DNA of 64,000 nt from an uncultured Acidobacteriota bacterium (GTDB lineage Bacteria; Acidobacteriota; Thermoanaerobaculia; UBA5066; Gp7-AA6): contig CAVTYD010000002.1 in the NCBI GenBank assembly GCA_963738945.1, positions 3,285,233 to 3,349,232 of the forward strand, given 5' to 3'. The translations under genes and the position numbers were made by a program. How positions within the stretch are numbered: position 1 is the first letter of the stretch; the number at the start of each line of letters is the position of its first letter. Shown piece by piece: positions 536-36,206 of the stretch. Under the pieces are notes generated by a model. It searched no databases. It saw only the letters and a program-made list of their open reading frames with translations, and was not told the DNA's origin.

Positions 536-2497
536 TCAATCCGTTAGAAACGCCTTGGTGAGGAAAACGGCCATCTGGCCGCGCGTGTTCGGGTTCGTGG
601 GACAGTACTCGAGCGGCCCCGTCTGGCAGCCGCCCGTGATGCCCTCGGCGTAGAGCCTCTCGACCCAGTTGGCGAACTGGCTCGGGCACATGACGTCGCC
701 GAAGATCCCGGTGCAGTCGGGCGGCACGTAGTCGTGGCCGTGCTCGGTCTTCAGGAGGAACACCGCCATCTGGGCGCGCGTGACCGGATTGGCCGGACAG
801 TAGAGTCCGGGGGCGCAGCCGCCGGTAATGCCCTCGGCCGAAAGCTGCTCGACCCAGTTGGTGAAGGTCCCCGGACACGGCACGTCCGTGAACTCGCCCG
901 TGCAGCTCGGCGGCAGATAGTTCGAGCCGTGCTCGGCCTTCAGCAGGAAGACGGCCATCTGGTCGCGCCGCACGGAGGCGTCGCGGCAGTAGTCGCCGCT
1001 GCCGCACCCGGCGGTGATGCCGAAGCGGAAGATCGCCTCGACGAAGTTGTGGAACTGGTCGGCCTGGGGCACGTCGAGGAAGTCGGCCATCCAGGCTGCC
1101 TGCAGGAATCCCGCGGTCGTGTCCGGGTTGAAGACGGCCACGTCGTTGAGGCTCCCGGGCGGCAGCGCCGGCGTCGTCGCGTTGATCTGCATCGGGCCGA
1201 CGACGTCGACGCCCGTGGCGGACTGTCCCGACAGCGTGACGGCCGCGCCGTCCTGGTAGAGCGCGCCCGTGAGCGTGATCGCCGTTCCTCCCGAGGCGGG
1301 ACCGGAGGTCGGTGAAATCGACGTGATGATCGGAATCGTCATCCGGTAGATGGCGCCGACGCCGTGAGCGCCGCCGGTCGAAGCCGTGCCGTAGAGCGCG
1401 AAGTCGCCCCCCTGAATGACGCCGCCATACGGGTTCGAGCCGCTCGCGTTGGCGAAGTCGTGCGCCGAGGCGGTCAGTTGTCCCGCGAGCGTCATGCGAT
1501 AGACGGTGCCGCCGCTGTTGCCGCCGCCGCTCGGCGCGGTCCCGTAGAGCAGTCCACCGGCGGCCTGGATCAGCCCGGCGCGAGGGTTGGTGCCGTCGGC
1601 CGAGGAGAACGCGTGAATGACGGAATAGGTCGTGCCGTCCTTGCGGACGCGGAACGCCGTTCCCCCGCCGCTGCCGCCGAACAGGGTCGTTCCGTAGAGA
1701 AACGAGTCGCTCGCCTCGATCAGCGAGGCCTGCGGATCCTGCCCGTCCGAGGAACCCGTGAACGTGTGGAGCGTCGAGAAGCTCATGCCGTCCGTGTTCA
1801 GGCCGAACACCGTGCCGAGGCCCGAGCCGTTGTGGCCCATCTCGGTCGTGCCGTAGAGCCGGCCGTCGGAGGCGAGGAGCAGGCCCGCGTATGGGTACGA
1901 GCCGTCGGTGACGCCGCTGCCGAAGCCGTAGATGACGGTGTAGTCGCTGCCCGAGGTATCCATGGAGAACACCGTGCCGAAGCCGTTCGCGCCGTCGTTC
2001 CTCGCGACGCCGTAGAGCGTCGTGCCCGAGATCTGCAGCCGTCCGAAGGGAGTGCCGCCCTCGTTGGCGCCGTCGAAGTGATGGATGACCGAGAAGTTGT
2101 TGCCGTTGGTGTCGATCTTGAAGATCACGCCTGCGCTCGAGTTCCCGCCGTCCTGGCAGGTCCCGTAGAGGAACCCGTCGGCCGCGAGGATGAGGGAGGC
2201 ATATGGTCCCGAGCCGTCCGTGGTGTTGAAGCTGTGGAGGACGACGAAGTTGCCTCCGTCGGGATCGAGCTTGAAGACGGAGCCGACTCCGTTCTCGCCG
2301 CCGGCCGTGGCCGTGCCGTAAAGCTTGCTGTTGGAATCCTGAACCAGAGCCGCGCGGGGGTTGTTGCCCTCCGATACCTCGAGGCTGTGAATCGCGGTGT
2401 AGCCCTGGGCGGCGGAGATGGACGGGTGGAGCAGAGCGGCGACGGCGCAGAGAGAGACGGTGCCGCGGACGAGCCAGCGCAAGGAAACACGGTTCAT
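536..2497 (-). CDS. Exported GloVer-type tandem-repeat protein with a C-terminal IPT/TIG domain and three Cys-containing SLH-like repeats
   Basis: The ATG at 2497 gives a signal peptide (MNRVSLRWLVRGTVSLCAVAALL). About 9 repeats of the G.LYGT..GG..G.GTVF type follow. Next comes an IPT-like segment (IITSISPTSGPASGGTAITLTG). Then there are 3 repeats of GIT.GC....YCP...VTR.QMAVFLLK. The listed 817-aa ORF extension upstream of 2497 is Arg/Pro-rich off-frame sequence. Confidence 0.85.
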   Translation of the reverse strand: MNRVSLRWLVRGTVSLCAVAALLHPSISAAQGYTAIHSLEVSEGNNPRAALVQDSNSKLYGTATAGGENGVGSVFKLDPDGGNFVVLHSFNTTDGSGPYASLILAADGFLYGTCQDGGNSSAGVIFKIDTNGNNFSVIHHFDGANEGGTPFGRLQISGTTLYGVARNDGANGFGTVFSMDTSGSDYTVIYGFGSGVTDGSYPYAGLLLASDGRLYGTTEMGHNGSGLGTVFGLNTDGMSFSTLHTFTGSSDGQDPQASLIEASDSFLYGTTLFGGSGGGTAFRVRKDGTTYSVIHAFSSADGTNPRAGLIQAAGGLLYGTAPSGGGNSGGTVYRMTLAGQLTASAHDFANASGSNPYGGVIQGGDFALYGTASTGGAHGVGAIYRMTIPIITSISPTSGPASGGTAITLTGALYQDGAAVTLSGQSATGVDVVGPMQINATTPALPPGSLNDVAVFNPDTTAGFLQAAWMADFLDVPQADQFHNFVEAIFRFGITAGCGSGDYCRDASVRRDQMAVFLLKAEHGSNYLPPSCTGEFTDVPCPGTFTNWVEQLSAEGITGGCAPGLYCPANPVTRAQMAVFLLKTEHGHDYVPPDCTGIFGDVMCPSQFANWVERLYAEGITGGCQTGPLEYCPTNPNTRGQMAVFLTKAFLTD

Positions 2498-3009
2498 GAC
2501 GCCTCCATCGAGGCCGGAAATTCTTTCACAGGTCGGCGGGCCGGGGGAGTCTCCGCGACACGGGCCCGCCGCCGTCGTCCGTGCCGTTTCTCGGGCTCGG
2601 GGTGGTGCCTGGGGTGGAAGACGTAGCCGAGGACCAGGAGAAGCCCGAGACCGGCGTGAAGGAAGCCCGTCGCGCGGACGGCGCCCCTCTCGACGAAGAC
2701 CTGGATCAGGTAGCCGGTCAGAACGAGGGGCAGGAACAGAACGAGCATCGCCGTCCCGGTTCTCCTTCCCTCGGGCTCGGCCTGGCGCAGCTTCGCCAGC
2801 GCGTGGCGGCGCAGCAGCAGTCCGATGCCGAAGATCGCCAGCGGCGCGACGAGGAGATGGGCCTTCAGGAGGGCCGGCTGCCAGGGATGGCCCGCGCGCG
2901 AATCGGGATCGGGGCTCGGGACGAAGTACTTGAAGACGCCATAGACGAGGCCCGTCAGCGAGATCGCGACGAGCGCCGCGTGATTCCACCAGGCCTCCCA
3001 GCGCTTCAC
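2494..3009 (-). CDS. 4-TM His-bearing membrane protein (DUF4405-like / cytochrome-b-like; function uncertain)
   Basis: The GTG at 3009 overlaps the upstream stop (GTGA) and its stop overlaps the next start (ATGA). Four hydrophobic helices carry conserved-looking His residues (WWNHAALV, LKAHLLVAP, FLHAGLGLL). The rest of the listed 396-aa ORF upstream is out-of-frame sequence over the FMN_bind gene. Confidence 0.7.
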   Translation of the reverse strand: MKRWEAWWNHAALVAISLTGLVYGVFKYFVPSPDPDSRAGHPWQPALLKAHLLVAPLAIFGIGLLLRRHALAKLRQAEPEGRRTGTAMLVLFLPLVLTGYLIQVFVERGAVRATGFLHAGLGLLLVLGYVFHPRHHPEPEKRHGRRRRARVAETPPARRPVKEFPASMEAS

Positions 3010-3575
3010 GGCTTCGGGGCTTCCTGCAGGACCCTGTGGAGCGCGAGCACGCGGCGGGCGGCGTCGGTCGTGGCGCGCGCCGTCAGCGTCGCCCCGGTCA
3101 CGCCACGGATGCCGCGCTTCATCGAGAGCTCGTCGTCGAGCGGCCTGCCCTGGAACTGCTCGTACCAGTGGGGCTTCGGCATGTATTCCTCGGGCTCGGA
3201 GAAGGACAGGACTTCGATGCGTGCGATCGCGCCGGCCGGATCCACGACGACCATGATCGTCTCCGGCATCGTCCGGACCGTGTGCGTGTCGAAGTAGGCG
3301 GTGCCGACCGGGCGGCCGTCCCGGGTCGCCGCGTCGAAGGTCACCAGGGCCGACGGCAGATCCTCGTCGCCCGAGAGTTTCTGCGCCGCCTTCTGCTGCG
3401 CCGCGGTGAGGTACGCGGTGCGGCGCTCGACCGTCGCTCCGGGAAAAGCGAGCTTCAGCGCCTCCTCGGGCGTGAGGAGGACTTTCGCCGCGGCCGCCGA
3501 GGCGGCGAGACACGCCGCCGCCGCGACGATCGAGCGCGCGACGCCTAGAAGACGTATCCGAGCGAAACGTTCCAA
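3006..3575 (-). CDS. Exported FMN-binding domain protein (ApbE substrate type)
   Basis: Has a signal peptide and an FMN_bind-like C-terminus with the flavinylation motif GIRGVTGATLTA ([S/T]GA[S/T]). Confidence 0.8.
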   Translation of the reverse strand: MERFARIRLLGVARSIVAAAACLAASAAAAKVLLTPEEALKLAFPGATVERRTAYLTAAQQKAAQKLSGDEDLPSALVTFDAATRDGRPVGTAYFDTHTVRTMPETIMVVVDPAGAIARIEVLSFSEPEEYMPKPHWYEQFQGRPLDDELSMKRGIRGVTGATLTARATTDAARRVLALHRVLQEAPKP

Positions 3576-4981
3576 AGGTTGACTCCGGTCTGCGCGGCAT
3601 TCCGCCGCTGTTGCCAGTCGGCCTTGAGAATGAGCTGGGGAATCGGCTGGAACACGGCGCCAAGGGTCCAGCCGTGGATGTCATTTTCCGGGTTGCGCGC
3701 GTAGCCGACCGGCACGGCAGCCTGCGTGTCGTACTGCTCGTACCGCGCGAAGGGGATGAGGTTCATCTTCGATCCGGAAACGAGCGACAACACGTCGAAC
3801 CCGGCCTGTCCGTACCAGCCTTCCTGCGTGCTGCCGACCGATTCGTCGCCCTCGAAGTTGTTCAGCTGGTTGATGAGGTCCGCCTGCTGGATGGTCGTAT
3901 GGGCGTAGATGCCGCGTACCCAGATTCCCCGCCAGCGCCAGTCGACGTGGGCCTCGACGAGCGTCGTCAGGCCGCTGATCTTCTCGCCCGACGGCGTGAA
4001 TTGCCCCTGTCCCGAGTCGCCCGAGAAGACCGAGGCGCCGGCGAGAAGACCGGGGACGGCCGTGAAGTCGACGCGGCCGGCGAAGGCCCAGCTCTTCGCG
4101 AGGGCCTCGGAACCCTCCTGGGATCCTTCGCGGATGCCGCCCTCCGCGGTGTAGCCGGCCGCGTTCAGGCCGTTGACGCCGTACAACTGATAGGAGACCG
4201 GTCCGCACGTGCCGTAAAAGCCGGTGCCGATCTCGCGCCACGTCGTCGGGATGATGACCTCGTCCACGTCCGGACGGCGCGCTCCCAGAAACGCCGTCGG
4301 CTCGTGGAGCTGGTTGATCAGGCCCGAGGGAATCAGGATCAGGCCCGTCCGCGCGTTGAACGCCGGCGAGTTCGTGTAGTCGATGTACGCGAACTCGACC
4401 TCGGCCTCGCCGCCCTTGTCGGAGGCCACGACGGCGTTCTCGTACTCGATCTCCGAGTTCAGGACGAAGTGCTGGTCGAACTTGTAGCCGATGTACACGA
4501 CCGCCCGCAGGTCCGTGATGACGTCCTCGCCGCTCGAGGGGGCGCCGCTCTGGTCCTTCGATGCGAAGTTGCTGTAGAGGATCTCGCCGTAGCCGCCGAT
4601 CGAGAGCCCCTTCTTGATGCCGTAGATCTTGGCCGCGGCGGGGCCGATGCCGTACCGCTCGACCGACTTCTCGCCGGTCGCCGCGCCGGCCTCGGAGGCC
4701 GGGGCGGCCTCGCCCATCTTCAGGTTCTGAATCTCCTGCGCCAGGATGTCGATCCGGCGAGAGAGCTCCTCGAGCCTGGCGTTGGTCTCGGCCGATGAAG
4801 ACGAGAACTTGAGCTTGTCGAGGTCGGCCCGCGTGTCGGCGAGGAGCTTCTCGAGCTCCTGGATCCGCTGCTCGGGCGTGAGCGTCGAGGGAGGCGCCGC
4901 CGGGGGAGTCTGCGCGGCGGCGGGAGCGCCCGCCGCCAGAGCGATGCCGGCAACCAGGAGAAGTCCCGGAACACGACGCAT
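3545..4981 (-). CDS. Outer-membrane porin-like beta-barrel with an N-terminal coiled coil
   Basis: Has a signal peptide (LLLVAGIALAAGAPAAAQ), a coiled-coil segment (RIQELEKLLADTRADLDKLK...LAQEIQNLK), alternating beta-strand-like sequence, and a terminal ...NVSLGYVF with C-terminal Phe. Confidence 0.75.
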   Translation of the reverse strand: MRRVPGLLLVAGIALAAGAPAAAQTPPAAPPSTLTPEQRIQELEKLLADTRADLDKLKFSSSSAETNARLEELSRRIDILAQEIQNLKMGEAAPASEAGAATGEKSVERYGIGPAAAKIYGIKKGLSIGGYGEILYSNFASKDQSGAPSSGEDVITDLRAVVYIGYKFDQHFVLNSEIEYENAVVASDKGGEAEVEFAYIDYTNSPAFNARTGLILIPSGLINQLHEPTAFLGARRPDVDEVIIPTTWREIGTGFYGTCGPVSYQLYGVNGLNAAGYTAEGGIREGSQEGSEALAKSWAFAGRVDFTAVPGLLAGASVFSGDSGQGQFTPSGEKISGLTTLVEAHVDWRWRGIWVRGIYAHTTIQQADLINQLNNFEGDESVGSTQEGWYGQAGFDVLSLVSGSKMNLIPFARYEQYDTQAAVPVGYARNPENDIHGWTLGAVFQPIPQLILKADWQQRRNAAQTGVNLWNVSLGYVF

Positions 4982-4996: not shown

Positions 4997-6040
4997 TCAG
5001 GGTGTGGGAGTCATGAGGCCGCGCACCGCTCTCGGGTCGGCCGTGAGGACGAAGGAGGCCATACCGGGGCTGGCGGAGGCCTCGAGGTGGTCGCCCGAAA
5101 CGGCGAGAAAGAGGACCTCCTGCTCGACGCCCCGCTGCCGGAGGCCTTCCGAGAGGGCGAGTCCGCGTTCGGGACCGAGCACGAAGAAGGCGGTCGAGAG
5201 AACGTCGGCGACGAGACCGGTCGGCGCAATCACGGTGACCGATCCGAAGTCCGCCGCGGGTTCACCCGTTTTCGGATCGAGGATGTGGCCGATCCGCCGC
5301 CCGGCGACGATGCGGGACCGCTCCGAGTCGCCGGAGGTCGAGGCGGACCGGTCCACGAGGCCGAGCTCGACGACCGTCCGCTGCCGGTCGCGCGGATCCG
5401 CCACCGGAACGCGCCAGGGTTTCTCGGAGGTGTCCGATCCGAGTGCGTAGACCTGTCCGCCGAGATCGAGCAGGGCGCTGCGGACCCCCGCCTTCGCCAG
5501 GACTTTCGCGGCGCGGTCGAGGCCGTAGCCCTTGCCCCACGCCCCCTCGTCGATTCCGGCGCGAGCGGTCAGGCGCGTCACGGTGCGGGCCGCCGCATCG
5601 ATGCGGAAGCGGTCGATGCCCGTCGCGGCGCGCGCTTGCGAGAGCTCGGCTTCGGTCGGAACGCGTCCCCCGGCGCGAAGGCCCCATGCCCGCACGAGAG
5701 GCAGGACGGTGGCGTCGAAGGCGCCCTCGGTTCGGGGTGTCCAGGCGAAGACGTCCGCGAGAAGCCGGACGAGCTCGTCCGACACGGCGACGGGCTTTCC
5801 CTCGGGCGCGGCGTCGATTCGCTCGAGCTCGCCGCCCCGCTTCCAGGTGGTCAGGAGCGCTTCGACCCGCTGAATCTCCGTCAGGGCCGCCTCGGAGGCC
5901 GTCAGCGCCTGCTCGCGATACTTCATTCGCACGACGAGATCGAGCGTCGTCCCCATGCTCTCCACGCGGCGCTCGACCGTCGAGACGACGGGCTCGTAGT
6001 CGAGGCGTGCGGCCAGCAGCGCGGCGGCGAGCAGCGGCAT
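4997..6040 (-). CDS. apbE: ApbE family FAD:protein FMN transferase
   Basis: Typical ApbE-like sequence throughout (MGTTLDLVV..., GAFDATVLPLVRAWG, GIDEGAWGKGYGLD, DLGGQ, STSGDSERS). The start shares 1 nt with the stop of the upstream gene. Confidence 0.85.
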   Translation of the reverse strand: MPLLAAALLAARLDYEPVVSTVERRVESMGTTLDLVVRMKYREQALTASEAALTEIQRVEALLTTWKRGGELERIDAAPEGKPVAVSDELVRLLADVFAWTPRTEGAFDATVLPLVRAWGLRAGGRVPTEAELSQARAATGIDRFRIDAAARTVTRLTARAGIDEGAWGKGYGLDRAAKVLAKAGVRSALLDLGGQVYALGSDTSEKPWRVPVADPRDRQRTVVELGLVDRSASTSGDSERSRIVAGRRIGHILDPKTGEPAADFGSVTVIAPTGLVADVLSTAFFVLGPERGLALSEGLRQRGVEQEVLFLAVSGDHLEASASPGMASFVLTADPRAVRGLMTPTP

Positions 6041-7776
6041 CAGTTGTAGTCCTCGTTCAGGGACCGCAGGAACGCGGCCACCGGCTCCTTGTCCGCGCTC
6101 GGGTCCTCGGCGAAGAAGATCCCCGCGAGCTCGGGAGACCCGTTGCGCACGCGGCCATCCCGCTGCTCGTCCGACATCGTGTCGTAGAGCTCGAGCACCT
6201 CCTCGAGCGTGCGCATGCGCCCGGTGTGCAGGTAGGGCCCGGACTGGCCGAGGTCGCGCAGCGTGGGCGTCTTGAAGTATCCGATCAGGCCGCGCAGCGC
6301 GTCGGCGGGAGCGAGGCCGTCGGGGTTCAGCAGGGCATTGAGCGTCTCCTGCGGCGCCGGGATGTCCGGGTTCGCGAAGACGTTCCAGACACCGAGATCC
6401 GCGGACCCGCTCCTGAATGCTCCGGTCGCCAGGGGATGCTGCGGCGTCGGCGGCAGGTAGTCGTCGTAGCGGGCATTGCGATAGGCGAGATCCGGGATGA
6501 AGAGACGCCGAAAGGCGCCGTCCCCGTGGTCGGCGTCGTACTGATCCTGGGTCGCGCCGATGTTGTGGAAAGATGAGTCGGTGAATCGCGGCGCCGGGTG
6601 GCAGGCGATGCAGTTCCCGGTCCGCGTCGACGGGTACCGGGGGTCGCCGGCGAGCGTCTGCGGCAGAGGCTCGCGCAGGAAGATCTTCAAGCCCGTCAGC
6701 TCCTCGGCGCCGAAGACGAACTCCTGGTCGTGCTCCGTGAACGCGCCGTCCTCCGGGCCGACGTAAACGGGATTCGTCAGCGCATTCACGGCGTCGCGCA
6801 GGCGGCGGCTGTAGGCGAGGTCCGTCTCGCCGGGGTCGGGTCCGGCGGGAAGGCCGTTCTTCGCGAGGAAGACGTCGTAGGGAGACGTGTTCGCGAAGGT
6901 CAGCGACTGCATGTAGGCCGTGATGAGCTTCGCGACGGCGGCGACGATGTCCCCGTCGGTCGCGCTCGCGACGTCGATCCGGAACGCGGGCGGCAGGAGC
7001 AGCTCGGCGGGAATCGAAGGATCGGTCCCGGCGAGAATCTTCCGGTAGGAGCCGCCATACTGCGCGCCGAGCTCGTCGGTGCCGTCGTCTTCGCGGATGA
7101 CCCGGGCGATGTGGGCGAAGGCCTGCGGGGCCTCGAGCGGCAGCCAGCCGAAGTTGCGCCCGGTCATCGTCCCGATCACCAGGTCCTCGGGCGTCGTGAA
7201 CTCGCCGTCGAAGTGCAGGAAGAACGGCACCGAGCGCGGCAGGAGGGCGTTCACGAGCGTTGGGGTGTTGCGGGGAGTGTGGACCTGGCCGTCCTCGCGC
7301 AGCGGAACGAGGCTCTGACGGCTGAAATCGTCATAGGTGCGCGTCGGCGCCCCGGCCGTGTCGTCGACGAGGTGGCAGTTGCGGCAGTTCATCGACTTGC
7401 CGGCGAAGGGACCGGGCAGCGGGCCGTCCGACGTGGGGAGTGTGGCGAGCACGGGGTCGCCCTGGGCGAGCGGCCGATTGACCCCGCTCATGTGCGCGGC
7501 GAAATACTGGGCGAACCGCGTCTCGAGAAAGAGCCGTTCTCCGATCGCGACCTCCGGCGGATCGGTCTCGCCGGCGCGGGGGCGTGGCATTCCGGGCAGC
7601 CGGACGAGCCGGGCCGGTGCGGCAAACGCGGAGCCGATCGGGGTGCTTCGAGTGGCGGTGCCGCCGGCGCCGATGACCGCGGCGAGTCCGAGCGCGGCGG
7701 CGAGTCCGATGACGGCCGGGGCGAGCGCGGCGGCGACGATGCGCGGCGGCTTCGACCAGGGAGTCACGCGAGGCAT
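6040..7776 (-). CDS. Di-haem cytochrome c peroxidase family protein (CCP/MauG-like)
   Basis: Two CXXCH haem motifs are present (MNCRNCHLV and GNCIACHPA). There is a signal/TM N-terminus and CCP-like spacing (...TPTLRDLGQSGPYLHTGRM). Confidence 0.85.
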   Translation of the reverse strand: MPRVTPWSKPPRIVAAALAPAVIGLAAALGLAAVIGAGGTATRSTPIGSAFAAPARLVRLPGMPRPRAGETDPPEVAIGERLFLETRFAQYFAAHMSGVNRPLAQGDPVLATLPTSDGPLPGPFAGKSMNCRNCHLVDDTAGAPTRTYDDFSRQSLVPLREDGQVHTPRNTPTLVNALLPRSVPFFLHFDGEFTTPEDLVIGTMTGRNFGWLPLEAPQAFAHIARVIREDDGTDELGAQYGGSYRKILAGTDPSIPAELLLPPAFRIDVASATDGDIVAAVAKLITAYMQSLTFANTSPYDVFLAKNGLPAGPDPGETDLAYSRRLRDAVNALTNPVYVGPEDGAFTEHDQEFVFGAEELTGLKIFLREPLPQTLAGDPRYPSTRTGNCIACHPAPRFTDSSFHNIGATQDQYDADHGDGAFRRLFIPDLAYRNARYDDYLPPTPQHPLATGAFRSGSADLGVWNVFANPDIPAPQETLNALLNPDGLAPADALRGLIGYFKTPTLRDLGQSGPYLHTGRMRTLEEVLELYDTMSDEQRDGRVRNGSPELAGIFFAEDPSADKEPVAAFLRSLNEDYN

Positions 7777-9582: not shown

Positions 9583-10095
9583 ATGAACCGGCGCGAGCTG
9601 CAGATTTTCCGCAAGTACCTGGAACGGCGAGGCCTGAAGCTCACCTCCGAGCGCCAGGCGCTGTTCGACGAGGTTTTCAGCAAACACGAGCACGTCGAGG
9701 CGGACGAGCTGCTCGTCCGCCTGCGCGCCCAGCACAAGAAGATCTCGCGGGCCACGATTTACCGGACGCTCGAGCTGCTCGTCGAGGCCGGCGTCGTCGG
9801 CAAGCTGCGCATCGGCGAGGCCGGATACCGCTACGAGCGCCTCCACGCCGGCGATCATCACGACCACCTGATCTGCGATCAGTGCGGCCGGGTCATCGAG
9901 TTCTTCGAGCCGCGCATCGAGGCCCTGCAGGACGAGGTGGCGTCGCGGCACGGGTTCCTGCTGCTCTCGCACAACCACCAGATGCGCGGGATCTGCCGGC
10001 GCTGCCGTCCGCGTTCCAAGTCCTCCAGCTCCACGGCCCGCGTCGTTGCGTCGGGTCCCGCTCCCGTGCCTATTTCGTCCAGGCCACGCGGATGA
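9583..10095 (+). CDS. fur: Fur family transcriptional regulator
   Basis: The DNA-binding region has Fur-like sequence (LTSERQALFDEVF...ISRATIYRTLELLVEAG). Metal sites are present (HHDHLICDQCGRVIEF; ...GICRRC). I prefer the ATG at 9583 over the listed TTG at 9562. The 3' end overlaps convergent tyrS by 26 nt. Confidence 0.85.
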   Translation: MNRRELQIFRKYLERRGLKLTSERQALFDEVFSKHEHVEADELLVRLRAQHKKISRATIYRTLELLVEAGVVGKLRIGEAGYRYERLHAGDHHDHLICDQCGRVIEFFEPRIEALQDEVASRHGFLLLSHNHQMRGICRRCRPRSKSSSSTARVVASGPAPVPISSRPRG

Positions 10096-11284
10096 ACCGG
10101 CGCCCGAGGCGCAGCACGCCGGCGCCGAGCGCCGCGAGCCCCTCGTCGGGATCGCGGACCTCCCGGGGCCCGGGCGTTCCGTCGGCGTAGAAGCTCAGCG
10201 CTCCCTCGGCGATCTTGCGGCGCGCCTCGCGCATCGAGGCCGCGAGACCGAGCGTGACGAGCGTCTTCGCGGCGCGTCCGCCGTCCGTCGCCGGGACCTC
10301 TCTCGTCTCGACGTCGTCGGGGACCTCGCCCCGGGAGAAGGCGCGGCGAAAGTCCTCCTCGGCGCGCTCCGCCGCGTCGGCGCCGTGGAACTGCGCGACG
10401 ATCAGGCGGCCGAGCCGCGCCTTGGCGTCGCGCGGATTCTCCACGCCCTCCTCGACGCGCTTCTTCCTCGCCGCGAGGTCGGACATCGGCTCGTCGGTCA
10501 GCAGCTCGTACCAGTTCCAGAGCAGCGCGTCCGGAATCGACATGACCTTGCCGAACATGTCGCCCGGAGGATCGAGGACGCCGATCGCGTTGCCGAGCGA
10601 CTTCGACATCTTCTCGACGCCGTCCGTGCCGACGAGCAGCGGCAGGGTCATGACGACCTGCGGCTCGAGCCCCTCGGCCCGCATCAGGTCCCGGCCGACC
10701 AGGAGGTTGAAGAGCTGGTCGGTGCCGCCGAGCTCGACGTCGGCCTTCAGCGCCACGGAATCGTAGCCCTGGGCGAGCGGGTAGAGCAGCTCGTGCAGGG
10801 CGATCGGCTGCTGCGCTTTCCAGCGCTTCTGGAAATCGTCGCGCTCGAGGATGCGCGCGACCGTGACGCGGGACGCCAGGCGCACGAGGCCGGCCGCGCC
10901 GAGCGCCCCGAGCCAGCGGTTGTTGAACTCGATCACGGTCTTTCCCGGATCGAGGATCTGGAACGCCTGCTTCGTGTAGGTCTTCGCGTTCGCCTCGATC
11001 TCCTCGGGCGTCAGCTGGGGGCGCGTCGTCTTCTTGCCCGACGGATCGCCGATCATGCCGGTGAAGTCTCCGATTACGAAGACGACCCGATGGCCCGCGT
11101 CCTGGAAGTGCCGCATCTTCCGGAGAATGACGGTGTGGCCGAGGTGGATGTCGGGTGCCGAGGGGTCGAAGCCCACCTTGACCGTGACCGGACCTCGGGC
11201 GAGCTTTCGGGCGAGGTCCGCCTCGTCGATCAGGTCGACCGCGCCGCGCCGAAGGATTTCGAGCGGAAAAGAGGGGGTCGTCAC
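10070..11284 (-). CDS. tyrS: Tyrosine--tRNA ligase
   Basis: Class I HIGH motif (HLGHTV) and KMSKS motif are both present. The TyrS-like GDFTGMIGDPSGK segment is present. The C-terminus is S4-like. Confidence 0.92.
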   Translation of the reverse strand: MTTPSFPLEILRRGAVDLIDEADLARKLARGPVTVKVGFDPSAPDIHLGHTVILRKMRHFQDAGHRVVFVIGDFTGMIGDPSGKKTTRPQLTPEEIEANAKTYTKQAFQILDPGKTVIEFNNRWLGALGAAGLVRLASRVTVARILERDDFQKRWKAQQPIALHELLYPLAQGYDSVALKADVELGGTDQLFNLLVGRDLMRAEGLEPQVVMTLPLLVGTDGVEKMSKSLGNAIGVLDPPGDMFGKVMSIPDALLWNWYELLTDEPMSDLAARKKRVEEGVENPRDAKARLGRLIVAQFHGADAAERAEEDFRRAFSRGEVPDDVETREVPATDGGRAAKTLVTLGLAASMREARRKIAEGALSFYADGTPGPREVRDPDEGLAALGAGVLRLGRRFIRVAWTK

Positions 11285-31949: not shown

Positions 31950-33041
31950 CTATTGAACCCGGCCTCTCGCCGCCACCGTGATTCGACCCTCGACCCGCTC
32001 CCCGCGAATCGCCGTGAGGGAATCGTGGAGGTTGACGACGGCGCAGGCGTGGTTGGGGAGGAGGCGGACCCGCTGACCCACGCGGAACGTCTCGCCCGGC
32101 GAGACCGCGAGGACGCCGTGCTCCTCCGAGACGCGGGCCACGCGGGTCCGGCCGCCGGAGACGATGCCGAAGCCGTCGGCCTCGGGGCGCATGGGGTCGG
32201 AGGAGAGCGTCTTCGAGCCCGCGTCGACGACGGCGCGGCCGGATTCCGGCGCGCTCACCACGGTCGCGAGGATGGTCAATGCACAGTCTCCGGGGCCGGC
32301 GCTTCCGAGCGCGAGCTGGGAGCGGTCGTTGTAGACGTAGGTCCCCGGACGGCACTCGGTGACGCCGCGCCCGGTCATCGCCGCGGCGGCGGTGGGCGTC
32401 GAGCCGACGGAGACCTCGTCCACGGACAGCCCGGCCTCGCGCAGCGCCTGCGCGGTCTCGGCGGCCAGGCGGGCCTCTTCCGCACCGACGCGCGCGACGT
32501 CCGCGGGAGTCGGGCCGGCGTAGCCCTGCCCCGCATGGGTGAAGACGCCGGAGAGCTCGAGGCCGGGGACGCCGGCGACGGCCGCGGCGAGCGCGACGGT
32601 GTCCTCGGGGCGAACTCCGGCCCGGTGGAAGCCCGGATCGATCTCGAGCCGCACCGAGAGCTTCCGTCCGGCGCGCGCGAACGCGCCGCCGAGGCTTCGC
32701 GCCCCGTCGAGGCTGTCCACGCCGACGGCGAGGCGGACCCGATCGGCGAGCGCGAGCAGGCGGCGCGCCTTGTCGTCGCCCACGATCGTGTACGCGAGAA
32801 AGAGATCGTCGAAGCCGAGATCGGCGAAGACCTCCGCCTCCGAGGTCTTGGCGAGCGTCAGGCCGTGCGCTCCCGCCGTGAGCTGCAGCCGGCCGATCTC
32901 CGGCGACTTGTGCGTCTTCGCGTGGGGCCGAAGCCGGATTCCGGCGTCTTTCGCGCGCGCCTGCATCCGGGCGACGTTCGACTCGACGATGTCGAGGTCC
33001 ACCAGCACCGCCGGGGTGGCGAGGTCTTCGATCCGGGTCAC
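31950..33041 (-). CDS. D-TA/DSD1 family PLP enzyme (D-serine dehydratase / D-threonine aldolase-like, alanine racemase N-fold)
   Basis: Has the PLP-Lys motif RPHAKTHK and C-terminal RLLPNHAC. The GTG at 33041 is in frame. Confidence 0.8.
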   Translation of the reverse strand: MTRIEDLATPAVLVDLDIVESNVARMQARAKDAGIRLRPHAKTHKSPEIGRLQLTAGAHGLTLAKTSEAEVFADLGFDDLFLAYTIVGDDKARRLLALADRVRLAVGVDSLDGARSLGGAFARAGRKLSVRLEIDPGFHRAGVRPEDTVALAAAVAGVPGLELSGVFTHAGQGYAGPTPADVARVGAEEARLAAETAQALREAGLSVDEVSVGSTPTAAAAMTGRGVTECRPGTYVYNDRSQLALGSAGPGDCALTILATVVSAPESGRAVVDAGSKTLSSDPMRPEADGFGIVSGGRTRVARVSEEHGVLAVSPGETFRVGQRVRLLPNHACAVVNLHDSLTAIRGERVEGRITVAARGRVQ

Positions 33042-33051
33042 GAGGCCGAGT

Positions 33052-33438
33052 CTAACCTCGGCGAAAGAGGGCGAAGACGAGGCCGGACGGAATGCCCGCG
33101 ACGAGCGCGGCCGTGATCGCACCGCCGGCGAGCGCGGATCCGTTCGGCACCGACGCTCCGGAGAAGGAAGCGAGCGCGACGAGCAGCCAGAGGCCGATCG
33201 TGACGAGCATGCTGAGCGAGACGCCGCGCAGGAGCGGGGCGCCGCGCGCCTGCCGGCGATAGAGGAGCCAGGCGCCGTAGAGAAGGAGGGCGTTCTGCAG
33301 GACGCCGGCGCCATTGACCAGGACCGTGGCCACCCGGAAACCCCCGAAGTGCGAGAGCACCCAGCCCTCCGCGTCGGCGCCCGGCGAGAGCGCGCGGCCC
33401 AGGTGATAGAGCGTGTAGGGGACGCCGAGTCCTCCCAC
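33052..33438 (-). CDS. 4-TM membrane module; probably the C-terminal part of the TIR protein, or a separate small membrane protein
   Basis: Four hydrophobic helices are present. This frame is open upstream to about 33612, with no start codon other than the GTG at 33438. The in-frame upstream sequence (..GGGGSGAAPVRALVAGVVGG) reads like a linker and TM start. Confidence 0.6.
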   Translation of the reverse strand: MGGLGVPYTLYHLGRALSPGADAEGWVLSHFGGFRVATVLVNGAGVLQNALLLYGAWLLYRRQARGAPLLRGVSLSMLVTIGLWLLVALASFSGASVPNGSALAGGAITAALVAGIPSGLVFALFRRG

Positions 33439-33529
33439 GACTCCGGCGACGAGCGCGCGAACGGGCGCCGCGCCGGAGCCTCCGCCCCCGATCGTCCCCC
33501 GGGAGAGGCGTCGCAGAGGCGACCCCTTC

Positions 33530-33961
33530 CCGGCCGGCTCTGCCGGGATCGATCTTCTGCTCGTGGAGAACCGAGGCCGCCTCCTCCGCCATGGCCGAGG
33601 CCGTTTCGGGCGTCACCTCCGCCGTGACCGCGCCCTTCAGGGCCATGGCCCAGGTCTCGCTCGCGCCGACGAGCTCGTCGTGGGTGATCCCCCGGCGAAG
33701 CGGGAGGAGGGATTTTCCGAGCTCGTGGGCGCGCACGAGCTCGGCCTCGCACTGGCTCGAGGCGAGCGATGCCGCCGAGACGACGAAGAGCGCCGCCCGG
33801 CATTCGCGGATCTCGGTGCCGATGCGCTTCAGGTACGAGCCGCCGAGCCTGCTCTTCTCCTGGTAGCGCCACGTCGTATAGCCTCGGGCCTCGAGACCGG
33901 CCGCGACCTCGGCCGCGATGTCGGCATCGACGTGAGCGTACGAAATGAAAACGTCGGCCAT
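33530..33961 (-). CDS. TIR domain protein (credible coding part; the literal ORF runs on to 33038 in a non-coding-looking frame)
   Basis: MADVFISYAHVDADIA...RECRAALFVVSAASLASSQCEAELVRA matches the bacterial TIR_2 pattern, including the WC..E-type catalytic Glu position. The start lies 2 nt after the SLATT stop. Confidence 0.8.
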
Positions 33962-33963
33962 GG

Positions 33964-35055
33964 CTACATGTACGACTCCGCCTCGAGCATGAGGCGCAGC
34001 CACTCTCCCTGTTCCTGGGCGAACAGGCCCTCGCAGCAGGCCAGGATTCCGAAGGCTTCGGACGGGCCGATCGCCGGGTTCTGGAGGCTCCTCCGATAGG
34101 CGGCGAGCGCGTTCTCCTTGGCGCAGGCGCGGGTCGAATTGCGCGTCGCCTCGAGGGTGGACCGCCACGTCCGGGCGCCCGCGAGGCCGGCCGGGATGAG
34201 GGCCGCGATGAAGGAGAAGACGAAACCGGGACCGTCGCCCTTCGAAGGACTCCCGGTGGTGAGGAAGACGTAGAGCTCCGGGATGAGGTGCAGGGCGACG
34301 AAGACGAGCGTCACGAGAAAGAAGGCCGGCATCAGGGCCGGGTTCGTGAGGAATCCGCCCTCTTCCTGCGATTTCCGGTGGAAGTAGCCGATCTGTGCGG
34401 CGAGCCGATTGTCGACGTAGTGATCGAGCCGCTCTCGAAGATGGGAGCCCGAGGGTTCGACGCGGGGAATGGCGGCGGCTGCCTCGTGGCGCGCGCGCTC
34501 CTGGAGCTCCGCGGCCTCGTGAAGGTCGTTCTGAACGATCGCGCTCTCGAGGTCCGCCGAAAGAGAGGCGGCGCTTCGGGTCGCGAGGCCCGGCTCGATG
34601 AAGAGCCGCCACTTGGAGAGGCGGAGCTGCTCGGCCCGATACCGTGCGAGCAGCCACTGGTTGTGACCGCGCCCCGAGAGCTCGGGCACGACGCAACCGA
34701 CCGTGACGAGGACCAGGACGAGCTCGATCAGAAGGAGGGCTCCGGAGAGGCGGTCTCCCATGCTCGAATGAAACGAGAGCTGGACGATCGAAAGAGCGAG
34801 CGCCGCCGTGGCCGCCGGGATTCCCCACCTCGCCCGGCCGAGGTGGCGGCGCTGCATCTCGTTGGCCTCTCCGTCGAGCCGGTCGAAGAGATTCAGCATC
34901 GACTCGGGCGCCGGCTCGGCCTCGATCGCGCGGAGGAACCGGCAAATGAACACGGGAGTTTGTTCCTCGAGGTGCGCCTCCCGCATGTCGTCCTTCACGA
35001 CCTCGACTCTCGAAGTCTTCTGGAGATCGGGGCAATCCTCCCGCTCGACGGTCAT
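33964..35055 (-). CDS. Tandem SLATT-domain (2 x 2-TM) membrane protein
   Basis: There are two modules. Each is a TM hairpin plus an amphipathic helix with SLATT/DUF4231-like motifs. Module 1 has RRHLGRARWG..TM..TM..NQWLLARYRAEQLRLSKW. Module 2 has AAQIGYFHRKSQ..TM..TM..TWRSTLEATRNSTRACAKENAL. Confidence 0.7.
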   Translation of the reverse strand: MTVEREDCPDLQKTSRVEVVKDDMREAHLEEQTPVFICRFLRAIEAEPAPESMLNLFDRLDGEANEMQRRHLGRARWGIPAATAALALSIVQLSFHSSMGDRLSGALLLIELVLVLVTVGCVVPELSGRGHNQWLLARYRAEQLRLSKWRLFIEPGLATRSAASLSADLESAIVQNDLHEAAELQERARHEAAAAIPRVEPSGSHLRERLDHYVDNRLAAQIGYFHRKSQEEGGFLTNPALMPAFFLVTLVFVALHLIPELYVFLTTGSPSKGDGPGFVFSFIAALIPAGLAGARTWRSTLEATRNSTRACAKENALAAYRRSLQNPAIGPSEAFGILACCEGLFAQEQGEWLRLMLEAESYM

Positions 35056-35336
35056 CACTTCTCGATCCGATACCCGAGCGCCACGATCGTCTTGAGCGTT
35101 TCCATGGCCGTCGTCCGGTCGTATTCCTTTTCGGACTCGGACAGGTCTTCGTAGGGGACGAGGGAAGGGTGTTCCTTCTTCTCATCGTTGCGCTCGGTCC
35201 CGTACCTCCAGCCGTCGGCGATGCGCCGCCGGGCCCAGTTCTCGTGCGTGTTGCGGGCGAGGAGCTCGGTCAGCTCGACGAGCTCGCGCGGAAGGCGGAT
35301 GCCCGACGTGTCCCGGGGCGCCGGCTTGTAGTCCAC
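35055..35336 (-). CDS. RyR (ryanodine receptor repeat) domain protein, 93 aa
   Basis: LARNTHENWARRRIADGWRYGTERNDEKKEHPSLVPYEDLSESEKEYDRTTAMETLKTIVALGY matches the RyR-domain consensus. The GTG at 35336 is preceded by GGAGG with 7-nt spacing. The stop overlaps the SLATT start (GTGATGA). Confidence 0.8.
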   Translation of the reverse strand: MDYKPAPRDTSGIRLPRELVELTELLARNTHENWARRRIADGWRYGTERNDEKKEHPSLVPYEDLSESEKEYDRTTAMETLKTIVALGYRIEK

Positions 35337-35438
35337 CGCGAGGCCTCCTTCCGCGTCGGACGTTCGGGTGGGGCCCTTATACACCGGGCCGGAGCGGTCC
35401 CGCTGCGGTAGAGTCGTCGGCGGTTTTCGGGAGGATTC

Positions 35439-36206
35439 ATGCGCTTCGGGGTCATCGTGGCGGCGGCGTTCTGGGGCGGAGCGGCTCTCGCGCCGGCGCA
35501 GACGGCCGAGGAGCTGATCGCGAAGAACATCGCCGCGCGGGGGGGCATCGAGAACATCAAGGCCGTCCAGACGATGCGGCTGACGGGCACGATGAAGACC
35601 GGGGATGACACGCTGCCGTCCGTCCTCGAGTTGAAGCGCCCGAACAAGAGCCGGTGGGAGTTCACCCTCGACCGCCAGACGGCGGTCCAGGCCTTCGACG
35701 GCACCGACGGGTGGACGTGGATTCCCTTCGCGGGCCAGGCCGAGCCCCGAAGCATGTCCGATGAGGAGCGCAAGGACGCCGCGCAACAGGCCGACATCGA
35801 CGGCCCGCTCGTGGACTACGCGCAGAAGGGCAGCCGGATCGAGCTCGTTCCCCACGACCGCGACTACCTGCCCGATGACTGGAAGCTGAAGGTCACGCTG
35901 AAGTCGGGCGAGGTCCGGTTCATCTACCTCGACCCCAAGACCTTTCTCCAGAGCGCGAGCGTCCTGACTCGCCAGGTCGACGGCCGCTCGATGGAAGTCC
36001 GCTCGGAGGTCGGCGACTACCGCAAGGAGGGCAGCCTGATGCTTCCGCACTCCTTCACCGCTTCGACGCAGGACGGCGCTCCGGCGCAGTCCCTGCAGTT
36101 CAGCCGCATCGAGCTGAACGTGCCGATCGACGACGATCGCTTTCGCATGCCGCCGCCGAAGCGCCCCGCCCAGCCGGACACCGCGCCGACGCCGGTGATC
36201 GGCTGA
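35439..36206 (+). CDS. Exported LolA-fold / outer-membrane lipoprotein-sorting-like protein
   Basis: Has a signal peptide, then AEELIAKNIAARGGIENIKAVQTMRLTG, which is typical of this family. Confidence 0.55.
   Translation: MRFGVIVAAAFWGGAALAPAQTAEELIAKNIAARGGIENIKAVQTMRLTGTMKTGDDTLPSVLELKRPNKSRWEFTLDRQTAVQAFDGTDGWTWIPFAGQAEPRSMSDEERKDAAQQADIDGPLVDYAQKGSRIELVPHDRDYLPDDWKLKVTLKSGEVRFIYLDPKTFLQSASVLTRQVDGRSMEVRSEVGDYRKEGSLMLPHSFTASTQDGAPAQSLQFSRIELNVPIDDDRFRMPPPKRPAQPDTAPTPVIG

Follow-up and report, generated by a model that had tools for sequence, protein, structure and literature searches.

ADP-ribose signals made by TIR domains are an immune language common to bacteria, plants and animals. 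SLOG-SLATT and SAVED-2TM effectors combine a cytoplasmic sensor domain with a transmembrane (TM) killing domain, and SLOG, Macro and SAVED sensor domains occupy the N-terminal position in other effectors. To our knowledge, before May 2026 the animal channels were the only setting in which a biochemical role of the RyR domain was known, and we know of no study establishing that animal R12 binds cADPR directly.

The described systems closest to the locus reported here are type VII Thoeris and the phage RyR-domain proteins. Type VII Thoeris, as presented by Yirmiya et al. (bioRxiv 10.64898/2025.12.03.692087), consists of a ThsB TIR protein plus a ThsH SLATT effector, was verified as anti-phage and uses canonical cADPR as its signal. 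RyDEP and the related phage R12 proteins are viral anti-Thoeris sponges or glycosidases, which bind 2'/3'cADPR with nanomolar affinity or hydrolyse it through the residues H75, W78, H100 and D117 (Lopez Rivera et al., PMC13232231).

The operon analysed here, which belongs to a soil acidobacterium, occupies positions 33052-35336 on the minus strand of the window (the whole 64-kb stretch of DNA under study) and has three products, RyR, SLATT and TIR. In common with type VII Thoeris, it places a catalytic-Glu TIR gene beside a SLATT-type membrane effector, and the expected logic is the same, in that a TIR-made signal of the cADPR family would lead to a membrane pore. In contrast to the two genes of type VII Thoeris, which encode a soluble ThsB and a SLATT-only effector, three genes are present here, and the RyR product is co-translated with the effector and, in relatives, fused to it. 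The effector also joins two different SLATT modules in tandem (4 TM), the TIR carries a fused 4-TM anchor, and the locus lies outside a defence island. An earlier note on this DNA, made from the sequence alone, could not match the operon to any named system; this holds for the RyR component and the TIR-TM fusion only, since TIR plus SLATT is the composition of type VII Thoeris. Neither a mention of RyR nor peptides of the RyR-linked TIR subfamilies were found in the text of the type VII preprint or in the parts of its tables that were searched, and no account of a RyR component encoded by the host turned up in the literature that could be searched.

Organization of the operon

The features that the earlier note had described were all present in the window sequence, and are as follows:

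35344..35348, minus strand: Shine-Dalgarno-like GGAGG, 7 nt 5' of the RyR GTG (direct sequence reading)
35055..35336, minus strand: stand-alone RyR-domain gene, 93 aa plus stop (Pfam RyR PF02026)
33964..35058, minus strand: gene of the tandem-SLATT 4-TM protein, 364 aa (SLATT HMM matches at the family level)
33052..33961, minus strand: TIR-4TM gene, a single 302-aa ORF in conspecific contigs, with a 1-nt insertion here
33566..33961, minus strand: TIR domain, residues 1-132 (Pfam TIR_2, 65.8 bits against a cut-off of 28)
33740-33742, minus strand: codon of the catalytic-type Glu74 (conserved TIR column)
~33541, minus strand: extra base, A on the minus strand (DNA alignments to the contigs L001, L094 and L095)
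33055..33480, minus strand: 4-TM part of the TIR protein, read here in the +1 frame with respect to the TIR domain (translation, hydropathy)

The RyR gene starts with GTG (35336-35334), and its stop codon TGA (35057-35055) overlaps the start of the SLATT gene in the sequence GTGATGA; two nucleotides past the SLATT stop, at 33961, the TIR gene begins. When custom TIR, RyR and SLATT HMMs were run against the 64-kb window, each gave one match, at the operon, and no second copies were found.

The RyR domain

The 93-aa product had been described as little more than one RyR domain, and it indeed matched Pfam RyR PF02026 from end to end (model positions 1-91) with 126.1 bits, against a gathering score of 27.4 bits. 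In the PDB, its sequence matches included the repeats of RyR1, RyR2 and RyR3 and the Bacteroides thetaiotaomicron protein 3NRT (E 4e-31); the E-value of ~1e-65 against RyR2 refers to the whole chain, single repeats giving ~1e-18 or weaker. By sequence, the product is closer to the animal RyR repeats and 3NRT than to the phage proteins, and it has in common with animal R12/R34 the repeat fold and the motifs YxPxPxDTS, HExW, HP and D.

With the phage R12 proteins it shares the Pfam family and the equivalents of the four ligand residues of RyDEP. These predicted ligand-contact residues, H31, W34, H56 and D73, are spaced (3, 25, 17) as in RyDEP and align with those of a Pectobacterium phage RyR protein; they are invariant among 24 RyR homologues, and the combination HWHD is found in 74 of 79 loci. 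Judging from this similarity, the single-repeat domain would be expected to dimerise and to bind ADPR-type ligands, and the phage RyR proteins provide an experimental precedent which, by analogy, suggests that the bacterial RyR could be a nucleotide sensor, buffer or regulator, as the earlier note had proposed. Unlike RyDEP, however, the window RyR is chromosomal and vertically inherited, and is encoded with, or in relatives fused to, a host TIR and effector. The gene shows a dN/dS of 0.15, and a search of 2.9 million viral contigs returned one close relative. The possibility that the window RyR is itself a phage-encoded RyDEP was rejected, given its chromosomal location, its synteny across species and its operon with host TIR and SLATT genes.

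The tandem-SLATT protein

The second product contains the two hydrophobic hairpins previously described, with a conserved basic helix after each (WLLARYRAEQLRL and RTWRSTLEATRN). Its N-terminal half resembles SLATT_3/DUF4231 and its C-terminal half SLATT_1, and an hhalign comparison of the two halves detected no similarity between them. The assignment of these helices to SLATT falls below threshold for the window protein, which scored 23.2 bits with Pfam SLATT_3 over residues 57-154 (cut-off 26.3) and 21.7 against 45 with NCBIfam SLATT_3, its C-terminal half giving no match to the Pfam or NCBIfam SLATT models. At the level of the family, the assignment is supported by profile matches for both halves. 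In an alignment of 33 members, 13 match SLATT_1, 11 DUF4231 and 7 SLATT_3, and relatives exceed the gathering scores in both halves (SLATT_3, 29.9 bits; DUF4231, 34.7 bits; SLATT_1, 28-30.5 bits). Five of nine isolated C-terminal halves also matched SLATT_1, two of them above the gathering score.

The AlphaFold2 model of the protein is all-alpha, with long helices (pLDDT 80.7, pTM 0.75). According to this model and to hydropathy, the protein has the layout of 2-TM hairpins with long helices, with a TIR gene in the operon; a Foldseek search retrieved no solved SLATT-like structure (best E 0.03, TM score <= 0.22). A profile search at E<=1e-30 gathered 387 representative clusters of the family at 50% identity. 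The dN/dS of the SLATT gene is 0.30.

The TIR-4TM gene

As the earlier note had it, a TIR domain with a catalytic-type Glu follows the SLATT gene. Across 52 TIR domains that neighbour RyR, the column of Glu74 shows a conservation of at least 90%. The 4-TM module that follows has a predicted N-in/C-in topology and matched nothing in Pfam, NCBIfam or PADLOC. The operon had been counted as three to four genes, and three is the number that stands: one gene, not two, encodes the TIR domain together with the 4-TM module. This gene forms an uninterrupted ORF (300-302 aa) both in a relative of 90% identity and in three conspecific contigs, whose identity to the window is 99.7-99.9%. The intact ORF was observed in L001, L094, L095 and a Logan contig.

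In the window, the extra base near 33541 shifts the frame in the linker that joins the TIR domain to the TM module, and is the sole indel in the alignment with L095, which is 99.94% identical over 6947 bp. The sibling assembly L094 also contains split housekeeping genes, which indicates that these assemblies are prone to indels. The extra base probably arose as an indel of the assembly or by a mutation of very recent date, and the dN/dS calculated from the intact TIR-4TM orthologues was 0.14.

Co-occurrence of RyR, SLATT and TIR genes

The neighbourhoods were compared in two sets, namely 79 species-level loci from many phyla, fetched by RyR alone, and 80 metagenome loci, fetched by the SLATT C-terminal motif. 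A TIR gene was present in 45 of the 79 loci fetched by RyR and absent from 34 (~43%); at 44 loci it was no more than 3 kb away from RyR, and at 40 the two shared a strand. RyR lay directly upstream of the window-type SLATT family in 31 of the 79. Among the 80 SLATT-motif loci, ~64 contained RyR, which adjoined SLATT on the upstream side in 42, formed a fusion with it within one ORF in 15 and was located after SLATT in ~7. RyR and tandem-SLATT are nearly always adjacent, and the 4-nt overlap of start and stop is common, being found in most relatives. The syntenic locus was recognised in 13 species-level genomes, and TIR-4TM was kept in 10 of them (absent in L015, L025 and L029); TIR was absent also from L003 and L007. 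The linkage of RyR, SLATT and TIR is beyond chance, with RyR-SLATT as the invariant core and TIR as a frequent but not obligatory partner. Since TIR is missing at some loci, the core must sometimes function with a distant signal source or with no TIR at all. The two computational points on which the earlier note had staked its reading, that is, HMM support for the RyR, SLATT (at the family level) and TIR calls and conservation of the three genes as neighbours, came out in its favour.

Seven mutually divergent RyR-SLATT fusions (25-39% identity to the first) gave Pfam matches to RyR plus SLATT, with RyR N-terminal to the SLATT killing domain. This reproduces the layout of the Macro-TM effector of type II Thoeris, in which a ligand sensor is N-terminal to a 2-TM/4-TM killing module. 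In contrast to Macro-TM, SLOG-SLATT and SAVED-2TM proteins, the candidate sensor fold is here RyR, unreported as a host sensor, and the window encodes it as a protein of its own. Complete two-gene systems made of a TIR plus a RyR-SLATT fusion were found in L100 and L110, and in other loci RyR forms the N-terminus of fusions with TPR-S plus an adenylate/guanylate cyclase, adjoining TIR-TM proteins. The partner TIRs belong to two subfamilies, positioned upstream or downstream. In these proteins TM segments follow the TIR domain, and some have C-terminal domains past the TM segments that would be extracytoplasmic. STAND NTPase, FGE-sulfatase, TPR or beta-propeller domains, which are typical of conflict systems, occur in other partner TIR proteins.

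This recurrence across phyla, together with the fusions, suggests that bacterial RyR reads TIR-made ADP-ribose signals. The locus and its relatives, which amount to hundreds of protein clusters (50% identity) in many phyla, would be the host side of the RyR/cADPR story known from phages, with the RyR domain inside TIR operons and coupled or fused to a predicted pore-forming effector or a nucleotide cyclase.

Proposed mechanism

We propose, with about even confidence, that the operon works as a single nucleotide-signalling module, built on a TIR and provided with a membrane effector, Thoeris-like and closest to type VII, with RyR as an extra component. The analysis shows the domain identities, the conservation of the catalytic and ligand residues, the purifying selection on all three genes and the strong linkage and fusion over a wide range of phyla; we infer the chemistry of the signal, its binding by RyR, the RyR-SLATT contact, the formation of a pore and the anti-phage role. 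The membrane-anchored TIR-4TM protein would be activated at the membrane and, through Glu74 and NAD+, would make an ADP-ribose-derived signal, a cADPR isomer. This signal would be bound by the 93-aa RyR, probably a homodimer as in the solved bacterial and phage RyR domains, in a pocket formed by H31, W34, H56 and D73. RyR would serve as a receptor or regulatory subunit for the tandem-SLATT protein translated with it, which may then open or oligomerise as an inner-membrane pore, leading to depolarisation and to growth arrest or death, as in abortive-infection defence.

More tentatively, bacterial RyR may be a specialised receptor that gates a membrane pore on binding cyclic ADP-ribose from a TIR; it would then represent a new class of sensor in Thoeris-like immunity or signalling, and the prokaryotic counterpart, possibly the source, of the animal cADPR-RyR axis. 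We regard this as possible but somewhat doubtful. In the proposed module, as in the animal Ca2+-release axis, the domain is tied to a membrane channel or pore, and the messenger comes from an enzyme that cyclises ADPR. The animal RyR, however, is a six-TM tetrameric cation channel, whereas the pore of the window would be a 4-TM SLATT protein, the domain is a separate 93-aa subunit, and the messenger enzyme would be a TIR and not CD38. If this receptor reading were true, the animal R12/R34 repeats would be retained nucleotide-sensor modules, and the phage RyDEP proteins captured copies of a host sensor. If RyR is the sensor, Thoeris-type signalling would gain a new receptor fold, the use of RyR domains as decoys by phages would be better explained, and a small, tractable bacterial system would be available for testing whether, and in what way, RyR repeats bind cADPR-type ligands.

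Receptor or off-switch

Two observations speak against RyR as a sensor. TIR plus SLATT suffice for type VII Thoeris, whose effectors work without RyR and are predicted to bind cADPR between protomers (Yirmiya et al., 10.64898/2025.12.03.692087). In the window family, the juxtamembrane arginines R139, R146, R296, R299, R306 and R310 of the SLATT protein are invariant and could bind cADPR likewise, so that RyR may not be the primary sensor. In addition, RyDEP uses a His/Asp pair for catalysis, and this pair is invariant in the window RyR family, which fits a degrading enzyme equally well.

RyR could therefore be a host off-switch or buffer, with SLATT binding the TIR signal directly, in a pocket formed by its conserved basic juxtamembrane residues, as proposed for ThsH. 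The RyR dimer would then sequester or hydrolyse basal or spent cADPR-type signal, as RyDEP and its relatives do with 2'/3'cADPR, setting a threshold and resetting the system. The occurrence of RyR with TIR at loci that lack the window-type SLATT (L060, L068-L076 and L069) is in line with this alternative, since it indicates that RyR tracks the signal and not one effector. Nevertheless, we consider an off-switch unlikely: the N-terminal fusion of RyR to SLATT (at least 15 loci) or to the TPR-S-cyclase is a sensor-like layout that would be odd for a pure antagonist, RyR-SLATT pairs are kept where TIR is not adjacent, and translational coupling as strict as this points to a stoichiometric complex.

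In type III CRISPR, the off-switch role falls to host ring nucleases, among them Crn2, which are homologues of the viral AcrIII-1. That pair too consists of one small signal-binding or signal-degrading fold employed both in viral evasion and in a host immune operon; its fold and signal differ from those considered here, and the comparison serves as an analogy for the off-switch alternative only, not as homology.

Genomic setting and biological role

As the earlier note had stated, the operon is flanked by housekeeping genes; the GC content is uniform over the 64 kb, and no tRNA was found in the window. Among Thermoanaerobaculia the locus is syntenic and vertically inherited, lying between M55 peptidase, LolA-like and D-Thr-aldolase-like genes, with no defence-island signature. 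PADLOC did not recognise a system in the operon, and returned generic TIR matches alone (ThsB, E 0.005), with none for RyR, SLATT or the TM module. The vertical inheritance amid housekeeping genes, the failure of PADLOC to recognise the operon and the TIR-4TM frameshift of the window copy count against the proposed model. If the role is defensive, such systems can occupy conserved housekeeping neighbourhoods, where island-based defence screens would overlook them.

The same relay could instead serve a physiological purpose, such as ion homeostasis or signalling at the envelope or membrane, by a gating that is reversible and not by anti-phage killing. Besides the syntenic, island-free setting, this would agree with the resemblance of partner TIR proteins to receptors, with the fusion of RyR to TPR-S plus a nucleotide cyclase, with its location beside a Tll0287-HAMP sensor, with ordinary purifying selection on all three genes (dN/dS 0.14-0.30) and with the search of viral contigs, in which no relatives of the SLATT family were found. 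We nevertheless judge it improbable, because TIR plus SLATT is anti-phage by experiment (10.64898/2025.12.03.692087), and the sequence of the SLATT protein changes much more quickly than those around it (27-34% identity, against 66-84% for the flanking genes). The modular swapping and repositioning of the TIR partner, and the STAND NTPase, FGE-sulfatase, TPR or beta-propeller domains of other partner TIR proteins, argue in the same direction, as does one relative that adjoins an integrase gene, ImuA/B-like genes and an HTH gene.

Role of the TIR protein

The model above assigns to TIR-4TM the production of a signal. Alternatively, it could be an NAD+-depleting effector acting in parallel with SLATT, while RyR senses ATP, ADP or ADPR. 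Many bacterial TIR proteins are NADase effectors (10.64898/2025.12.03.692087); the crystal structures of RyR3 R12 in the PDB, which contain ATP, ADP or AMP-PCP, offer an animal R12 precedent, and the TIR matches obtained with PADLOC are to the effector-type models SAVED-TIR and Aga-TIR. This explanation appears quite improbable, given that the pairs of TIR plus RyR-SLATT fusion mirror the Thoeris logic of a generator plus a sensor-effector, and that several partner TIR proteins of the relatives also match Pfam ThsB_TIR.

Finally, the idea that the genes are functionally unlinked, or that the locus is a decaying remnant, which could appeal to the frameshift near 33541 and to the loss of TIR from some relatives, is effectively refuted by the comparative data, namely the recurrence of the linkage across phyla and in gene fusions, the low dN/dS of all three genes, and the intact TIR-4TM of the three conspecific contigs, together with the housekeeping indels of these assemblies.

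The RyR, SLATT and TIR genes form a compact operon

The earlier note had described a packed minus-strand operon of RyR, SLATT and TIR genes in the window. This operon is real, as all three genes were read at the positions listed below, arranged head to tail and closely packed.

Features of the module in the window
35055-35336, minus strand: RyR gene; GTG start with GGAGG 7 nt upstream; 93-aa product
33964-35058, minus strand: tandem-SLATT gene; 364-aa ORF, its start overlapped by the RyR stop; four hydrophobic helices
from 33961, minus strand: TIR domain; begins two bases past the SLATT stop; TIR_2 match of 65.8 bits (cut-off 28)
~33541, minus strand: extra base in the TIR-4TM frame; the sole indel relative to the conspecific contig L095

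The proposal of a stand-alone RyR protein was borne out, since its product comprises one entire RyR domain (Pfam score 126.1 bits, cut-off 27.4); the TIR_2 match likewise confirmed a TIR start two nucleotides beyond the SLATT stop. A custom TIR HMM gave a single match in the 64-kb window, at the operon. The DNA around the module has a GC content of ~69% and an unbroken composition, and a tRNA scan of the window found no tRNA genes. The RyR, SLATT and TM products are not covered by any PADLOC model, and for TIR the PADLOC matches were generic only; system-level or specific matches were absent from both PADLOC and NCBIfam.

Downstream, a D-threonine-aldolase/D-serine-dehydratase-like gene (31950-33041) starts 10 nt past the TIR-4TM stop (junction at 33041-33054). 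Since every syntenic relative has this gene next after the module, it may be co-transcribed with it; a promoter/terminator scan, uninformative in DNA of 69% GC, found no terminator between the two genes. The divergently transcribed neighbor on the other side (35439-36206, plus strand) encodes a 255-aa protein with only weak LolA/LolA-like matches, and is kept beside the module across Thermoanaerobaculia with 55-94% identity.

The TIR domain and the 4-TM module belong to one protein

Past the TIR domain, the TIR frame of the window turns to arginine-rich nonsense, and the 4-TM module lies in the +1 frame. The TIR domain and the 4-TM module had been listed as separate items, which is corrected here: they constitute a single 300-aa ORF in L001, a 90%-identical relative, and an unbroken 302-aa ORF in each of three further contigs that carry an identical RyR protein. 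Over 6947 bp, the window and L095 are 99.94% identical, and the only indel is the extra base at ~33541. In another conspecific contig, L094 (99.66% identical to the window), the region 1055-3115 contains an M55 peptidase gene in two pieces and a truncated gene for a Cys/Met-metabolism PLP enzyme; these broken housekeeping genes indicate that indel errors are frequent in these assemblies. Given the intact conspecific ORFs, the lone extra base and the breaks in L094, the frameshift at ~33541 most likely stems from an assembly indel or from a mutation that arose very recently. A pseudogene or remnant was rejected because the gene is intact in conspecific contigs and dN/dS is low. Between the window strain and L001, dN/dS was 0.15 for RyR, 0.30 for SLATT and 0.14 for TIR-4TM, which shows purifying selection on each of them. 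RyR, tandem-SLATT and TIR-4TM together make up the biological unit.

The second gene encodes a tandem of SLATT-type modules

The SLATT identity proposed previously stands at the family level, and for both halves of the protein; the window protein itself remained below threshold (Pfam SLATT_3, 23.2 bits against 26.3, residues 57-154), with weak agreement from the NCBIfam SLATT_3 model. Across an alignment of 33 orthologues, SLATT_1 matched 13, DUF4231 11 and SLATT_3 seven. When C-terminal halves were scanned singly, SLATT_1 was detected in 5 of 9, of which two exceeded the gathering score; among N-terminal halves, that of the relative locus L050 matched DUF4231 and that of the window gave the SLATT_3 match. 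In more distant members, both halves exceeded the gathering scores (SLATT_3 29.9, DUF4231 34.7 and SLATT_1 28.8 bits). A recent internal duplication was ruled out, since hhalign found no similarity between the N- and C-terminal halves (probability 0.4%). As the halves are not detectably alike, the protein represents a tandem of two 2-TM modules from different SLATT subfamilies. The AlphaFold2 model is all-helical and confident (pLDDT 80.7, pTM 0.75), and Foldseek found no significant PDB neighbor for it, only generic bundles of long TM helices. At E<=1e-30, an exhaustive profile search returned 387 representative clusters (50% identity) that share this architecture over their full length.

RyR, SLATT and TIR co-occur in relatives

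A word-indexed search retrieved 15 SLATT homologues, all on Thermoanaerobaculia-type contigs. RyR was directly upstream wherever this region was visible, and TIR-TM was downstream in most of them, being absent from the relative loci L003, L007/L008 and L004/L005. We also fetched 79 species-representative loci with the RyR alignment alone and searched them with custom HMMs; those TIR matches that were re-checked with Pfam proved to be TIR_2. TIR-based signalling systems occur in ~8% of genomes (10.64898/2025.12.03.692087).

Partners at RyR loci (n = 79, raw counts)
TIR present: 45
TIR no more than 3 kb away from RyR: 44
Nearest TIR on the same strand: 40
Tandem-SLATT family present: 31
TIR and SLATT both present: 25

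The syntenic Thermoanaerobaculia locus has the order M55 peptidase, LolA-like gene, module and D-Thr-aldolase-like gene, and TIR-4TM is kept in 10 of its 13 species. Identity at this locus was 66-84% for the flanks, 74-81% for RyR, 38-69% for TIR-4TM and only 27-34% for SLATT. A second arrangement, TIR-RyR-SLATT, was found in other genomic contexts and includes a different TIR subfamily, in which one TM helix separates the TIR domain from a C-terminal domain. In one block of this kind (L097 8720-11397, the same as L040), the TIR gene is directly preceded by a 68-aa HTH_3 (XRE-type) gene. The block adjoins a split phage-integrase gene, a VRR_NUC gene and ImuA/ImuB-like genes, and unlike the window it has the appearance of mobile or variable DNA.

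RyR is naturally fused to SLATT in some relatives

In the SLATT family, the longer proteins are natural fusions of RyR and SLATT; seven of them (442-477 aa), divergent from one another, have a Pfam RyR domain at the N terminus followed by the tandem-SLATT body. A metagenome scan with the SLATT C-terminal motif yielded 80 loci, many on short contigs, and TIR was present in 33 of them.

Position of RyR at metagenome SLATT loci (n = 80)
Adjacent upstream, separate ORF: 42
Fused, same ORF: 15
After SLATT: ~7
None seen: ~9
None seen, contig end cuts the upstream region: 7

Two loci represent complete two-gene systems: in L100, a 709-aa TIR protein precedes a 451-aa RyR-SLATT fusion with overlapping start and stop, and in L110 a 495-aa fusion precedes a 464-aa TIR protein. 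When a RyR-SLATT fusion was modelled with AlphaFold2, its RyR domain was the only part with PDB matches.

RyR as a candidate messenger-binding component

Phage RyR-domain defence-evasion proteins (RyDEP, PF02026) were reported in a May 2026 preprint to hydrolyse 2'/3'cADPR or to sequester it at nanomolar affinity; it also presents a crystal structure and names H75, W78, H100 and D117, common to animal R12 repeats, as ligand or catalytic residues (PMC13232231). The predicted ligand residues of the window RyR, H31, W34, H56 and D73, have the same spacing, an equivalence drawn from the published numbering and from their alignment with a Pectobacterium phage homologue. They are invariant in 24 homologues, and HWHD is present in 74 of the 79 loci. 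In viral contigs, no SLATT-family relative and only one close RyR relative were found, so a prophage or phage origin of the module is not supported.

The interpretation of the earlier note withstands every computational test within the reach of this analysis, and a Thoeris-like relay is the most economical reading of the module: the membrane-anchored TIR (Glu74) would generate an ADPR-derived messenger, a RyR dimer would bind it, and RyR would control the tandem-SLATT pore. In the fusions, RyR is N-terminal to the predicted killing domain, the position held in other effectors by SLOG, Macro or SAVED sensors. By this analogy we favor RyR as a sensor or regulatory subunit, an assignment we hold with about even confidence. 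In type VII Thoeris, described in a December 2025 preprint, TIR is paired with the SLATT effector ThsH, the signal is canonical cADPR, and the SLATT protein is predicted to bind it between protomers (10.64898/2025.12.03.692087). The main alternative, which we consider rather improbable, is that SLATT here senses the signal directly, as was proposed for ThsH, and that RyR, as a homologue of the phage antagonists, serves as a host-encoded off-switch or buffer. In its favor, RyR retains the His/Asp dyad, and type VII systems without RyR exist. As to the role of the module, the evidence argues both ways: its location among conserved housekeeping genes and the receptor-like build of the TIR partners are consistent with physiological signalling, whereas the fast-evolving effector, the modular swapping of TIR and the conflict-type partner domains are consistent with anti-phage defence.

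The module shares TIR and SLATT with type VII Thoeris and adds a host RyR-domain component. Host RyR genes in TIR operons go unmentioned in both preprints (10.64898/2025.12.03.692087 and PMC13232231), and a search of part of the Thoeris survey's Table S1 found no peptides from the two partner TIR subfamilies. RyR is unmentioned in an Aravind-group eLife 2020 paper and a Viruses 2022 paper. No paper with both whole words "SLATT" and "RyR" was found in the literature searched, which excluded the SLATT-defining paper, where a prior note of RyR-SLATT is possible (Burroughs et al. 2015, PMC4678834). The module is best classed as a Thoeris-like TIR and SLATT system with a host RyR component, of which we found no description in the literature searched. 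The finding is timely, can be put to the test, and is relevant to where ryanodine-receptor repeats originated and to their ligand biology.

RyR is found with other partners

RyR also occurs N-terminal to TPR-S and an adenylate/guanylate cyclase in fusion proteins. Proteins of ~750-840 aa with an N-terminal RyR were found in Pyrinomonadaceae (L044, L047, L051-L053, L059, L062 and L063) and in L071, L079, L091 and L089. At the Pyrinomonadaceae RyR-TPR-S-cyclase loci, the gene directly upstream encodes a ~640-aa protein that combines a TIR domain with a single TM helix, an arrangement suggesting that a TIR signal is relayed to a second, cyclase-made messenger; TIR is absent from the locus in the TPR-S-cyclase fusions of L071, L079 and L091. 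In L089, RyR is fused to TCAD9 and TPR-S. RyR was also observed beside TIR proteins bearing FGE-sulfatase, nSTAND1, TPR or beta-propeller domains. In a Gammaproteobacteria MAG (L060 4384-7617), for instance, a stand-alone RyR lies between two TIR proteins with FGE-sulfatase domains, one of which also has a TM segment, and no obvious effector is nearby.

Armatimonadota loci (L068, L072, L076 and also L081) carry a conserved trio without a SLATT partner: a stand-alone RyR, a 292-aa Tll0287-like/HAMP membrane sensor and a TIR protein. In an Isosphaeraceae MAG (L092 6297-8204), the RyR stop and the start of the next gene overlap; this gene encodes a 636-aa protein with four TM helices, which has a weak N-terminal YAcAr (SLOG-family) match (22.7 bits, below the cut-off) and no match to the custom SLATT HMM. 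In one Thermoanaerobaculia clade (L032, L037, L039, L041 and L042), TIR is absent and SLATT is replaced by a ~510-aa PMT-like membrane protein with 9-10 TM helices following RyR; L032 contains a ~6 kb tandem duplication of the whole block (RyR at 2-124 and 6001-6279, aldolase-like gene at 3703-4782 and 9858-10937). Finally, four loci have, no more than a few kb from the main RyR gene, another RyR-domain ORF that has diverged strongly; its identity to the window RyR is 32-41% in L055, L065 and L070, and in L117 it is an HMM match only.
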